A program made the translations under genes and the position numbers. From Candidatus Dadabacteria bacterium (lineage in GTDB: Bacteria; Desulfobacterota_D; UBA1144; Nemesobacterales; CSP1-2), in assembly GCA_040289575.1 (NCBI GenBank), contig PSLL01000006.1, positions 113,764 to 127,415 of the forward strand: DNA of 13,652 bases, given 5' to 3'. This document shows positions 7,114-13,652 of the stretch, one piece after another. The notes under the pieces are model-generated. The model did no database searches. It worked only from the letters and a program-made list of their open reading frames with translations, and was not told the origin of the DNA. The stretch's first letter is position 1; every line of letters begins with the position of its first letter.

Positions 7114-8436
7114 ATGGTAAGAGCATCCAAAGCATCTCAAAATTCCGAAGATAATAAAAAGGAAGTAGGGGTCGAGTCTCAACAATTCCTCAATTTAAAT
7201 GAACTAAGAAATAGAAAGCCTACGGAACTGATGAGGATGGCAAGAGACCTAAACATTGAAGACACGTCTCGCATGTCGAAACAGGATCTTATATATGCAA
7301 TCCTGCGAGCACAAAGCGAGAAAGAAGGCATTATTTATGCCGAGGGGGTGCTTGAAATACTCTCGGAAGGCTACGGATTTTTAAGGTCTCCCAAGTACAG
7401 CTATCTTCCTGGACCGGATGATATATATGTCTCCAAATCTCAGATACGCTCATTTAATCTTAAAACTGGCGACACAACTGGCGGCCAGGTTCGGCTTCCA
7501 AGGGAAGGAGAAAAGAATCTTGCACTCCTTAAAATCGAACACGTAAACTACGATACGCCTGAATTCTGTAGAGACCGTGTGCCCTTTGAAAGCCTTATCC
7601 CGCTTCATCCTGAAGAGAAGATTCATCTTGAATACGACCCGAATGATTTTTGCACAAGGGTAATGGATCTATTTATTCCCGTTGGAAAAGGACAAAGAGC
7701 ACTAATTGTTGCACCGCCAAGAACCGGTAAGACCATTCTTCTTCAAAGAATTGCGAATGCAATAACTAAAAACCATCACGAGATAGTCCTTATAGTGCTC
7801 CTAATTGACGAGCGCCCTGAAGAAGTAACGGATATGGAAAGGTCTGTAAAAGGAGAGGTTGTAAGCTCTACATTTGATGAGCCGCCGCAGCGTCATATAC
7901 AGGTATCCGATATGGTTCTTGAAAAAGCAAAGAGGCTTGTAGAGCATGGAAAAGACGTGGTTATTCTACTCGACAGCCTTACAAGGCTTGCACGCGCAAG
8001 TAACACAGTAACCCCTGCAAGCGGAAGGGTTCTCTCCGGAGGAATTGAAGCAAATGCACTCCAAAGGCCAAAGAGATTCTTCGGTGCCGCAAGGAACACT
8101 GAAGAAGGCGGAAGCCTGACGATAATTGCCACTGCGCTGATTGATACTGGAAGCAGGATGGATGAGGTAATATTTGAGGAGTTCAAGGGCACAGGAAATA
8201 TGGAGGTCTATCTCGACAGAAAACTTGCGGATAAGAGAACATTCCCCGCAATAGACCTTCATCGTTCGGGAACAAGAAAAGAAGAGCTTCTATTACCTGA
8301 AGACGTTCTAAACAGGGTATGGCTTCTGCGCAAGATCCTAAGCCCTATGAGTACAATAGAAGCAATGGAATTCCTCTTAGAAAAGATGAGAGGAACAAAG
8401 TCAAATAAAGAGTTCCTTAATTCAATGAATCAGTAG
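7114..8436 (+). CDS. rho: Transcription termination factor Rho
   Basis: 440 aa with [38 protein letters not shown] (P-loop), [42 protein letters not shown] and SGTRKEELL. Confidence 0.99.
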
Positions 8437-8481
8437 CCTACTGACTCCAGGATTTGATTTTAGATAAAATTAGGCTAAAAT

Positions 8482-8528
8482 AAAAAGCCTGCTGTTCCAA
8501 GCGAGAGGATAAAACAGCAGGCTTTTTT
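8482..8528. terminator. Bidirectional intrinsic terminator between rho and the convergent small ORF
   Basis: Perfect 15-bp inverted repeat AAAAAGCCTGCTGTT (8482-8496) / AACAGCAGGCTTTTT (8513-8527) with a 16-nt loop. It gives a U-tract on both strands. Confidence 0.8.
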
Positions 8529-8568
8529 ACCTCTAAAGAATTGGAGAGGCAAAAAGGCGAATTAAGGT

Positions 8569-8649
8569 CTATTTCTTCTTAGTTCCACCCTTTTTGCTTC
8601 CTCCCTTCTTGCTACCGGACTTTTTGGTAGCTTTCTTCTTAGTTGCCAT
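8569..8649 (-). CDS. Small lysine-rich basic protein, 26 aa (MATKKKATKKSGSKKGGSKKGGTKKK)
   Basis: Not in the ORF track. ATG at 8649, TAG at 8571-8569. SD AAGGAGGTGA at 8667-8658 with 8-nt spacing. 12 of 26 residues are Lys. Followed by the bidirectional terminator. Confidence 0.75.
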   Translation of the reverse strand: MATKKKATKKSGSKKGGSKKGGTKKK

Positions 8650-8687
8650 CTATCGCCTCACCTCCTTGTTAGAAAGTATACTAAAAC

Positions 8688-8725
8688 AAAAAAAATCCCT
8701 CGTCTTCGTTGCCAAAAACGAGGGA
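8688..8725 (-). terminator. Intrinsic terminator/attenuator upstream of the small Lys-rich ORF
   Basis: Minus strand UCCCUCGUUUUUG-GCAA-CGAAGACGAGGGA is a 13-bp stem with two G-U pairs and a GNRA tetraloop, followed directly by U8. Confidence 0.8.
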
Positions 8726-8777
8726 GAATCCTTTGCCTTCTCAGTAATCTTAATCTTCATTATCAGATTCTATTAAG

Positions 8778-8806
8778 ACTCTAATTTGTTTTAAAAAGTT
8801 TGTCAA
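8778..8806 (-). promoter_or_regulatory. Putative sigma70 promoter for the leader/small-ORF transcript
   Basis: Minus strand TTGACA (8806-8801), 17 nt, TAGAGT (8783-8778), with AT-rich upstream sequence. Confidence 0.6.
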
Positions 8807-8956
8807 GTGTTTTTCACATTTTTCTACATAATGTTGTGCATGGTGATTTTTTATACACCAAATACTGTGAGTCTAATTTTAAATAATGATTTATCAGTCA
8901 GAACAATAATGGATTGAGGCTCAGAGTAGAAGTCAAATTCTTAGATTTTAACAGAT

Positions 8957-9274
8957 CTAATAAACCTCTATTAAAATGTATATATCGTTGCCTTCTACTT
9001 TTAGTTGATAGGTCTCAACCGACTCATAAGCGGGCATAGAGAGCACCTCGCCTGTTCTCACATTGAATTTTGCCCCATGCCAGGCACAGGTTATAGTCTC
9101 CTCATCGAGAAAGCCATCCGAAAGGGGATAATTCATGTGCGTGCATTCGTCTTTTATGGCATAGAATCTTCCACCCACATTGCATATTGCGATAATCTCG
9201 CCCTCGACTTCAAATGATCTGATCTCTCCGGGAGGGATATCGGATGTTTTTGCCACCTTTTTAAACTCGGCCAT
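8957..9274 (-). CDS. Rieske [2Fe-2S] ferredoxin (dioxygenase ferredoxin-subunit type)
   Basis: 105 aa with Rieske boxes C-T-H (DECTHMNYPL) and C-A-W-H (ITCAWHGAKFNVRTGEV..MPA). Confidence 0.95.
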   Translation of the reverse strand: MAEFKKVAKTSDIPPGEIRSFEVEGEIIAICNVGGRFYAIKDECTHMNYPLSDGFLDEETITCAWHGAKFNVRTGEVLSMPAYESVETYQLKVEGNDIYILIEVY

Positions 9275-9399
9275 TATACAAATAACCTCTCATAATGATT
9301 GTTGTAAACTTTTTGAATGAATCGAATGTAGGATACTATATACTAAGGGTTTAAAAGCCCATAACCAATCTTGTATTCTTTCTATTGCGCCTCAGTGTT

Positions 9400-9852
9400 T
9401 CACTCCGTTGAGATTACCATCTCATCTTCATTCAACGCGGCATTCAGCGTGTGCCATGCTAGGCTGGCACATTTAACGCGATTGGGGAAATTACACACCC
9501 CTGAGAGTGATACTAATTCCCCAAGCTCATTTAGGTCGTCCATTGTGTCCTTCTCCCCGATAAGCATTTTATGAACTCTATCGAAGAGGGCTTTAGCTTC
9601 GGCTATTGTTTTTCCTTTCAAGCTCTCAGTCATCATTGAAGCAGATGCCTTGGAGATTGCACAGCCCGAGCCTTGAAAACTGATTTCTCTAATCACCTCA
9701 TCCTCTAAATACACATAGATAGTGACCTGGTCGCCGCAAAGAGGGTTGTAACCTTCAGCCATGCGGTTTGCCCCTTCGAGCTTCTTAAAGTTACGCGGCT
9801 TCCTATTATGGTCGAATATAATGTCATGGTACAGTTCGCCGAGGTCAAACAT
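9400..9852 (-). CDS. sufU: SUF system NifU-family sulfur-transfer/scaffold protein SufU
   Basis: 150 aa with LYHDIIFDHNRKPRN, NPLCGD, GCAISKASAS and RVKCASLAWH. TAATG overlap with the sufS stop. Confidence 0.93.
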   Translation of the reverse strand: MFDLGELYHDIIFDHNRKPRNFKKLEGANRMAEGYNPLCGDQVTIYVYLEDEVIREISFQGSGCAISKASASMMTESLKGKTIAEAKALFDRVHKMLIGEKDTMDDLNELGELVSLSGVCNFPNRVKCASLAWHTLNAALNEDEMVISTE

Positions 9853-12480: not shown

Positions 12481-13140
12481 TTAAGCGCCTGCCGGTATGG
12501 CGGTCCGGGCATTTTCAACCCAAGCATAACCCCTATTTTCAAGCTCTAGAGCCAGTTCCTTGCCGCCCGACTTGACAATTCGTCCATCAACAAGCACATG
12601 CACATAGTCGGGGATGATATAGTTGAGTAGACGCTGATAGTGGGTGATTACAATAAACGCGCGTTCCTTGCCCCTTAATGCATTAACACCGTTGGCAACG
12701 ATCTTCAATGCATCAATATCGAGACCGGAGTCGGTCTCATCAAGGATACCGAGCTTGGGCTCAAGCACCGCCATCTGGAAGATTTCATTTCGCTTCTTCT
12801 CGCCTCCAGAAAAGCCTTCGTTGACTGAACGCTGCAAGAGTTGTTCATCCATCTCCAGGAGCTTCATCTTTTGATTAACCAATTTGGCAAATTCTACAGG
12901 CTTAAGGGGCTGAAGGCCTCTGTGCTTGCGTATGGCGTTGAGTGCCTCTCTGAGGAAGTAGGTGTTGGTAACACCTGGGATCTCAACCGGATATTGGAAT
13001 GCCATAAATATCCCTTCCCGAGCACGATCCTCTGGACTCATCTCAAGCAGGTTTTTTCCCTGAAAGATTATCTCCCCCTCTGTAACATTATAAGTCTCCC
13101 GACCGGCTAGAACCTGAGCCAGCGTGCTCTTGCCGGAGCC
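12481..13140 (-). CDS. sufC: Fe-S cluster assembly ATPase SufC, from Walker A to the C-terminus (native N-terminus missing; C-terminal part of the chimeric ORF 12481..>13652)
   Basis: GSGKSTLAQVLAGRETY, RAREGIFMAFQYPVEIPGV, RSVNEGFSGGEKKRNEIFQM, LDETDSGLDIDAL, ITHYQRLL and LALELENRGY. Directly upstream of sufD. Confidence 0.93.
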   Translation of the reverse strand, partial: GSGKSTLAQVLAGRETYNVTEGEIIFQGKNLLEMSPEDRAREGIFMAFQYPVEIPGVTNTYFLREALNAIRKHRGLQPLKPVEFAKLVNQKMKLLEMDEQLLQRSVNEGFSGGEKKRNEIFQMAVLEPKLGILDETDSGLDIDALKIVANGVNALRGKERAFIVITHYQRLLNYIIPDYVHVLVDGRIVKSGGKELALELENRGYAWVENARTAIPAGA

Positions 13141-13652
13141 GCTGTGGCCCACCAGGCCGACCAGTTCGCCCGCTTTGACCTTGAACGAGACGTTGTCGAT
13201 CACCGGGTCCGGCGAGTCGCTGCTCTCGTAGCGGAAGGTCACGTTCTTGAACTCGATATTGCCAACGATCTCCCGGTCCGCGGCGTTCGGCTTATCCTTG
13301 ACTTCCGGCTCCGTATCCAGCAGCTCAAAGACGCGCTCGGCGGCGGTGGTGCTTTGCTGGATGCTCTCGTTCATCTCGCAAAGCGCCTGCACCGGCTGGT
13401 AAAACTGCCACATGTAGCTCGTGAAGGCGGTCAGGATGCCCAGCGTCATCGTGCCTTCGATGACCATCTTGCCGCCGAAGTACCAGATGAAGAGCGAGCC
13501 GGTCGCCGTGAGCAGCGTCGTCAGCGGCGAGTAGATCATGGACAGCTTCGTCGCGCGCATGTTGATGCCGAAGTACTTCTGCATGCGCCGGTCGAAGTTT
13601 TCCACCTCGCGGCTCTCCTGCGCGAAGCTCTTCACCACGCGCACGCCGGAGA
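13120..13652 (-). CDS. Fragment of an ABC exporter (MsbA/MdlB-like TMD end plus NBD start), in frame with SufC and 5'-truncated by the window edge
   Basis: SGVRVVKSFAQESRE, GTMTLGILTAFTSYMWQFYQPV, AAERVFELLDTEPEV, GNIEFKNVTFRY, VSFKVKAGELVGLVGHSGSGKST. The frame is open to 13652, so the track's start at 13644 is an internal Val. Sampled lines are 37-39 G+C per 60 nt. Confidence 0.88.

Follow-up and report, generated by a model that had tools for sequence, protein, structure and literature searches.

An attenuator-type leader predicted upstream of an unannotated lysine-rich micro-gene in Candidatus Dadabacteria

What is an intrinsic terminator doing between a strong promoter and the small gene that lies behind it? 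The question is raised by a locus in a stretch of 13,652 nucleotides, which we call the window, from a Candidatus Dadabacteria genome (assembly GCA_040289575.1, contig PSLL01000006.1, positions 113,764 to 127,415). A first-pass annotation had described here a promoter, a hairpin followed by eight T residues, a Shine-Dalgarno (SD) sequence ahead of a micro-protein start, a leader open reading frame (ORF), a small inverted repeat and a TATACT motif, and every one of these is present where it was placed. That annotation left two readings side by side, namely expression of the micro-protein by conditional read-through of the hairpin, or a stand-alone small RNA (sRNA) of about 85 nucleotides; both are possible, and the evidence presented here cannot separate them. 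The description that fits the region best is that of an attenuator-type leader belonging to an unannotated, lysine-rich micro-gene, every RNA end being predicted from sequence.

Coordinates throughout are those of the window, and the micro-gene unit lies on its minus strand. G000 denotes the genome containing the window, the other G codes further Candidatus Dadabacteria genomes, and the L codes the metagenome or genome contigs compared with them. Family genomes and metagenome loci gave, once duplicates were removed, 18 distinct leader sequences; these copies are kin. Read along the minus strand, the unit opens with a conserved upstream block and a sigma-70 promoter; a leader of about 45 nucleotides and an intrinsic terminator follow, and then an SD sequence, the Lys-rich ORF and a bidirectional terminator. 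Because the order promoter, hairpin, SD sequence and micro-ORF recurs in all 18 distinct homologues, the observation is more than chance, and we take it as confirmed that the arrangement is real and conserved. The first-pass annotation had made its reading depend on conservation of the hairpin upstream of micro-protein homologues: the hairpin stands there in 18/18, including all 12 metagenome homologues, which had been fetched with a pattern that did not require it.

The promoter (8778–8806) combines a −35 element TTGACA (8806–8801), a 17-nucleotide spacer and a −10 element TAGAGT (8783–8778). It scores 10/12 and is the top promoter-like site within 8300–9400, a stretch that holds 10 such sites against 3.2 ± 1.9 in shuffled sequence. 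Alignments of 10 and of 15 sequences show an invariant −35 element and a nearly invariant spacer and −10 element, the latter reading TAAAGT in most relatives where G000 has TAGAGT. From the usual −10 spacing, transcription is predicted to start near 8771. Since the −35 element, spacer and −10 element are near-invariant while the upstream gene varies, the unit appears to use its own promoter rather than that of a neighbour, and to be an autonomous, unannotated micro-gene unit. Near-identical −35 and UP-like regions also precede mraZ in G005 and another locus in G009, and the promoter core is accordingly read as a generic strong promoter. At the G009 locus (L012 1500–1700) the shared UP/−35 region extends over 26 nucleotides at 96% identity and is followed by TAGTAT, with no SD sequence or ORF start evident by eye; the stretch behind it may be an RNA gene.

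The terminator (8688–8725) is a 13-bp stem with a GCAA loop (8725–8696), followed by T8 (8695–8688) and then GTTTT. The 86-nucleotide RNA from 8771 to 8686 folds at −28.6 kcal/mol (z score −4.77), and none of 200 shuffles was as good. The terminator itself is worth −20.6 kcal/mol in G000 and between −14.4 and −21.4 kcal/mol across the 18 copies, all of which have 8–9 U within the 10 nucleotides after the stem. Within 8300–9400, four terminator-like sites were found compared with 0.7 ± 0.9 in shuffles. The lower stem CCCTCG/CGAGGG and the U-tract are near-invariant; the upper stem is built differently in the G004 and L062 copies. On the alignment 91.7% of stem cells are paired, against 49–59% when the partners are slid. 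A strict scan of G000, demanding a perfect stem of at least 7 bp with at least four G-C pairs and T5, listed 59 terminator-like hairpins in 3.06 Mb, so that canonical terminators seem rare in this Rho-bearing genome. Among these 59 the leader terminator alone has a sigma-70 match before it and an SD-preceded ORF after it, and its stretch is single-copy, with no extra copy in the G000 genome. The rule could not reach the long-loop terminator at 8482–8528 at the other end of the micro-gene, so the unit contributes one of the 59 plus that further element. One further observation concerns the genus of L005, L006 and L007 (G011, G005 and G013), where the leader hairpin is flanked by A7–A8 upstream and T5 downstream and could terminate in both directions.

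Behind the hairpin, 20 nucleotides past the T-run, lies the SD sequence AAGGAGGTGA (8667–8658), which is invariant in all 18 copies, and then the micro-ORF (8569–8649), encoding the 26-residue, Lys-rich product MATKKKATKKSGSKKGGSKKGGTKKK and ending in TAG. The ATGGC at its beginning is invariant or nearly so. Start, stop and SD sequence are kept in 19 copies, the homologues ranging from 19 to 43 residues through in-frame, repeat-like indels. Codon differences are synonymous throughout in close pairs (synonymous/non-synonymous 5/0 for G001 and L066, 7/0 for G010 and L086, 5/0 for L070 and L086), a pattern that identifies the micro-ORF as a real gene under purifying selection.

Where, then, does the mRNA for this protein come from? 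A strong conserved promoter always lies upstream of the hairpin and hardly any promoter lies behind it, so the simplest inference is that the mRNA is read-through RNA. Promoter-like sites of at least 9/12 occur behind the hairpin in two of 18 copies (G011 and G013), while the other 16 reach at most 7/12 and G000 has none. The TATACT at 8680–8675, offered previously as a separate −10 element, is present in the sequence but loses its appeal against this count. Despite the missing promoter in 16 copies, the micro-ORF retains its invariant strong SD sequence and the marks of purifying selection. We put at roughly 0.4 the probability that the hairpin is a leader attenuator with conditional read-through, ribosome occlusion being the most likely means. 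Most transcripts would stop at 8688, giving an RNA of about 85 nucleotides, and RNA polymerase passing the hairpin would be the sole source of micro-protein mRNA. The extent of read-through would be set by ribosomes on the leader ORF, which is the weakest step in the scheme and one we regard as doubtful. A ribosome close behind the polymerase would hold the 5′ arm unpaired, thereby suppressing termination; the output of micro-protein would thus report how tightly translation is coupled to transcription, and the leader peptide itself would have no function.

The leader ORF comprises 36 codons (8760–8650), with its ATG at 8760–8758 and a TAG that directly abuts the ATG of the micro-ORF. It lies in a variable 5′ leader (8726–8771) whose sole conserved island is AATG (in the region 8762–8758): up to position 37 of the 18-sequence alignment the only columns without variation are A1, A11, A12 and G14, and T13 is kept in 17/18. 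An A-tract and then a U-run are conserved before the stem, and the island and the A-tract are the only conserved parts of the 46 nucleotides in front of the hairpin proper. Conserved U4–U5 runs lie immediately ahead of the stem and within its 5′ arm, the second of these being needed for the stem as well. Elsewhere the unit varies in the first 10 nucleotides of the leader, the 20–25 nucleotides from the ATG to the A-tract, the upper stem and loop, and the 15–20 nucleotides between U-tract and SD sequence. The distance from ATG to hairpin is 30–36 nucleotides in all copies, the intervening sequence varying freely.

The ATG is kept in 17 of the 18 copies, and G008, which has ACG, carries an in-frame TTG two codons upstream. 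In G000 the ORF runs through the hairpin and the T-run and is in frame with the micro-ORF. The leader frame has no stop through hairpin and U-tract in 18/18, where the other two frames have stops in most copies, and its earliest stop lies at least 10 nucleotides beyond the stem, at a position that varies among copies. Because the start codon is so widely kept and the frame always spans the terminator, translation-coupled attenuation is possible. The first-pass annotation had described the ORF as lacking an evident SD sequence and perhaps fortuitous; its start and frame stand, as does the missing SD sequence, but the encoded peptide is not conserved. The frame through the hairpin differs even among close relatives, there is no conserved run of regulatory codons, and the sole shared Lys codon derives from the A-tract, which gives Lys in any frame. 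A functional leader peptide was rejected for these differences in frame and for a preponderance of non-synonymous substitutions. With neither frame nor peptide conserved, only the act of translation could matter.

Several observations weigh against coupling through this ORF. An SD sequence precedes 11 of 13 genes in the window and is lacking here; G008 has lost the ATG; and substitutions in the leader are mostly non-synonymous (none synonymous and two non-synonymous between G010 and L086, for example). Chance alone would leave the frame from ATG to hairpin open in 0.33–0.71 of dinucleotide shuffles, depending on the sequence. Since the hairpin has no stop in any of the three frames and the 18 copies are related, the open frame is weak evidence; nothing beyond the start codon and this openness appears to mark the leader as coding. 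Terminated transcripts, if translated, would be non-stop mRNAs, which is a cost. AAUGR in the leader is complementary to UCGUU of the 5′ arm in 17–18 of 18 copies, which offers an alternative reason for the conservation of AATG. Covariation in the terminator is no better than in shuffles: one pair changed on both sides, a result reached by 414 of 500 shuffles. The conservation of the hairpin thus appears to be mostly sequence identity among relatives together with a kept terminator shape, not statistical covariation.

Attenuation of other kinds receives less encouragement from the leader. The RNAalifold consensus contains the terminator as its only helix, with no antiterminator or aptamer helix. 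Rfam gave no match at gathering score over the whole window and nothing usable at E up to 10 over 8400–9000, where the best sub-threshold models were PyrR (22 bits, gathering score 54), ncr952 (21 against 100) and NsiR1 (14.1 against 39). With the sequence between ATG and hairpin also varying freely, the suggestion of an unrecognised riboswitch finds no support. A trpL-type attenuator was rejected, there being no alternative helices in the consensus, no SD sequence and no run of regulatory codons. Sequestration of the SD sequence by ACUUUCU, seen in the fold of G000, was dropped as it is absent from the consensus structure; a boxA-like reading of CUUUCUAACAA was dropped as it is not kept in relatives; and the small GAGAA-N9-TTCTC hairpin, present in G000 as first described, is likewise not kept. 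No RAT, ANTAR or PyrR-type motif was found in the leader, and a scan for tRNA and tmRNA genes found none.

If read-through were not conditional at all, the promoter might serve a functional, stand-alone sRNA of about 85 nucleotides, the micro-protein being made constitutively through a leaky terminator of fixed efficiency. A consensus −35 element with a UP-like A-tract and a canonical terminator 46 nucleotides further on predict an abundant short RNA, and in most copies the hairpin is preceded directly by a U-rich stretch and followed by a long U tail. The sequence of the hairpin is conserved beyond the needs of pairing, and the first 16 nucleotides are near-identical in the nine copies of the G003/G010/L064 groups and G008, and similar in G004 and L062. 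Nevertheless no seed is shared across the family, AATG alone being common to all groups; Rfam holds no match; and no Hfq gene was found in G000, a genome estimated as 95.35% complete, with a search that gave matches in control genomes. An invariant SD sequence and a selected micro-ORF only 20 nucleotides behind the terminator further imply that the downstream part is no by-product, and we consider an sRNA of this kind unlikely.

Read-through might instead be conditional on a protein factor, which would stabilise the AAUGR:UCGUU helix, or else melt or stabilise the hairpin. Candidate factors are a cold-shock domain (CSD) protein or the polycationic micro-protein itself, in which case the circuit would be autoregulatory. 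The five inner AAUGR:UCGUU pairs can form in 17–18 of the 18 copies and an eight-pair helix is 86.1% paired, compared with 37–67% for slid controls; the T-to-C change that destroys the ATG of G008 turns a U-G pair into a C-G pair; and in RNA folded up to the 5′ arm, 7–8 bases of the arm pair with leader sequence in G003, L071, G010, L070, L086 and G008. These folds formed before the terminator are weak, however, at −3.5 to −8.7 kcal/mol against −14.4 to −21.4 kcal/mol for the terminator. No covariation is seen in the paired columns, the outer three pairs cannot form in 4–7 of 18 copies, RNAalifold does not report the helix, and its register was derived from one of the compared sequences, which favours it over the slid controls. 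As for the factor, four CSD genes of G000 pass the Pfam cut-off, but the four csp genes of this genome have no leader terminator of this type, and the missing RAT, ANTAR and PyrR-type motifs, like the 22 bits of the PyrR model against its gathering score of 54, speak against familiar antiterminators. Antitermination by such a factor is, we judge, rather improbable. Separately, six contigs from unrelated bacteria (L067, L073, L078, L081, L082 and L092) carry cold-shock-protein genes with the same −35 and SD/start motifs, and also a leader terminator-like hairpin and U-run about 60 nucleotides before the SD sequence.

Both products of the promoter could also be functional. The RNA of about 85 nucleotides would then act in trans and the Lys-rich micro-protein made by read-through would be its RNA chaperone, in a phylum without Hfq; in a variant the polycation would feed back on its own terminator hairpin and set its own level. 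We regard this two-product regulator as a long shot. In some lineages a metal-responsive operator may overlap the start of the leader. A match to a Fur 7-1-7 consensus lies at +8 to +22 (8750–8764) and overlaps the leader ATG; it scores 13/14 in G003, L063 and L071 and 11/14 in G000, G010, L070, L086, L064 and L083, but at most 9/14 in the other nine of 18 copies, among them the nearest relatives of G000, which is no better than shuffles. Three genes of the Fur family are present in G000.

The least probable account, that the hairpin merely ends upstream suf/Rieske transcripts and that the micro-gene is driven by a weak promoter behind it, can point to the lack of any other terminator-like site from the Rieske stop (8957) down to the hairpin on the minus strand of G000 and to a TTGGCA-17-TATTAT lying across the hairpin loop and T-run of G011 and G013 (10/12 and 9/12), but it leaves the strong promoter upstream of the hairpin in 18/18 without explanation, faces matches of at most 7/12 behind the hairpin in 16 of 18 copies, and is weakened again by an upstream gene that differs between genera and in G010 points away, with no co-directional gene within 900 nucleotides upstream.

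The attenuator-type leader is accompanied by further conserved elements on either side. Upstream, a block (8807–8872) with invariant or nearly invariant columns in both the 10-sequence and the 15-sequence alignment extends for 65 nucleotides 5′ of the −35 element and is conserved as strongly as the promoter itself. It contains an 18-bp imperfect palindrome, GGTGTAT-N4-AATCACC (8859–8842), centred at about −80, a box CACAACATTATGTA (8838–8825) and an A-rich, UP-like stretch (8824–8809). The palindrome block looks like a candidate site for a transcription factor or other protein. No second copy of the palindrome was found in the G000 genome at up to two mismatches, and a regulon search of G000 with the palindrome and boxes gave no convincing second site. 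In genera other than that of G000 a second box, ATTGGTGTAAATCC, lies about 30 nucleotides further upstream.

At the 3′ end the micro-gene shares a bidirectional terminator (8482–8528, both strands) with rho, which occupies 7114–8436 on the plus strand and is convergent with it. The element is made up of A6, the arm GCCTGCTGTT (8522–8513), a 16-nucleotide loop, the arm AACAGCAGGC (8496–8487) and T5; its arms are of 10 bp, of which the simple scan had listed only the inner five pairs, and the arms GCCTGCTG...CAGCAGGC are kept in relatives.

How widely is the unit distributed? Of 15 genomes from a single Candidatus Dadabacteria family, whose members are uncultured soil bacteria, 10 carry it, G000 included, and the stretch 8872–8600 is 69–84% identical in the nine others; the phylum's 105 remaining genomes lack it. 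The pattern of SD sequence, start and two Lys codons occurs in 11 of the 120 phylum genomes, all in the same family; 10 of these carry the unit, and the eleventh, G012, has a different start (MALKE...). A metagenome scan that fixed only the −35 element, the SD sequence and the start found 35 loci, namely the 12 homologues and 23 unrelated genes. A listing of sequencing runs that contain this DNA gave four DNA runs from two soil studies and no RNA run.

The unit converges on rho in every carrier, and its upstream neighbour is Rieske in G002, sufS in G004, G005, G011 and G013, and other ORFs in G003 and G008; the contig of G001 begins inside the unit. In G000 the genes upstream are Rieske, SufU, SufS and SufD, the Rieske stop lying at 8957, and the unit adjoins Fe-S assembly genes in several genomes. 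Where the unit is absent from this place, in G006, G009, G012 and G014, sufS is directly next to rho, at a distance of about 55 nucleotides; G007 has a different neighbour at the corresponding place. Upstream in G010 lies a diverging gene, across a gap of 900 nucleotides without a co-directional gene; this stretch (L009 660–1557) has no ORF of at least 60 residues on the strand of the unit and contains a facing promoter-like pair scoring 11/12 each. Further along the window, upstream of sufD, the minus-strand gene at 12484–13644 joins ABC_membrane and ABC_tran domains, which makes it a fused ABC protein of exporter type and not simply a SufC; neither SufB nor SufC turned up in the scanned part of the window.

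The micro-protein has left few traces in protein collections. None of eight homologues was found by exact look-up among some 15 billion collected proteins, and Pfam and NCBIfam searched at E up to 10 gave composition-level matches only, to the Rv3852 family (12.6 bits against a cut-off of 100) and to the tail of valine-tRNA ligase. The ESM Atlas holds one homologue, among unnamed clusters of 29–38 residues, and the nearest named cluster there carries HC2 on 17% of its members, at a score of 0.90. Elsewhere, on an unrelated metagenome contig (L077), a very Lys-rich ORF of 47 residues has the same −35 and SD/start motifs and no leader hairpin.

What does the locus add? A micro-protein under clear purifying selection has been missed by annotation. 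We know of nothing on RNA-level regulation in Candidatus Dadabacteria, and a search of literature titles and abstract openings returned no description of such a unit. The kind of element is known; its variant features, as predicted, are that it has no alternative helix, that an ORF without an SD sequence extends across the terminator, and that the cargo is a polycationic micro-protein. If the reading of the leader ORF is true, this would be a minimal attenuator without alternative RNA structure, reporting the coupling of transcription and translation, a mode of control that to our knowledge has so far been documented for very few genes.

Comparison with known systems brings out what is shared and what is peculiar. 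The micro-protein resembles the Lys/Ala-rich, histone-H1-like proteins (Chlamydia Hc2, PF07382) in composition, without a Pfam or NCBIfam match at E up to 10 beyond the composition-level ones. Tiny polybasic ribosomal proteins are also of similar composition; unlike such fitted proteins, it varies in length from 19 to 43 residues through repeat-like indels. The leaders of trpL, hisL and pheL likewise place a short leader ORF and then an intrinsic terminator before the regulated gene, but they differ in having conserved 1:2, 2:3 and 3:4 helices and a run of regulatory codons, neither of which is conserved here. The ORF described here also continues past the terminator, and no biosynthetic operon lies downstream.

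As with the prematurely terminated 5′ untranslated-region RNAs of PMC7815308, found by 3′-end mapping, the product would be a short leader RNA of a coding gene, cut off by a promoter-proximal intrinsic terminator. Such an RNA may be regulatory or a by-product of attenuation. The published cases rest on mapped RNA ends, whereas the ends given here are predicted. For the two-product regulator the parallel is the Bacillus subtilis sRNA FsrA, which acts with the small basic proteins FbpA, FbpB and FbpC (29–54 residues), predicted RNA chaperones, in a system where Hfq plays no major role (PMC10730256). Both pair an sRNA with a very small basic protein, which here would come from one promoter; the fbp genes and fsrA are in that account separate Fur-regulated units, unlike this locus, where nine of 18 copies lack a Fur-type match better than shuffles.

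The attenuator reading itself finds its parallel in pyrL-pyrBI. In Escherichia coli the pyrBI attenuator is contained in the gene for its leader peptide, and a terminator that closely follows a translated frame is repressed (PMC4824070); tight coupling across pyrL prevents the terminator from forming (PMC5021804). The present leader differs in that its ORF has no SD sequence and its translation is putative, in having no link to pyrimidines or UTP, and in controlling a 26-residue, Lys-rich micro-protein. It resembles pyrL-pyrBI, as portrayed in these sources, in placing hairpin and U-tract inside a short leader ORF (no in-frame stops, 18/18), in needing no alternative antiterminator helix, in its U-runs before the terminator, here putative counterparts of nucleotide-sensitive pause sites, and in a design in which termination would be the default and the terminator falls within the first 100 nucleotides of the ORF.

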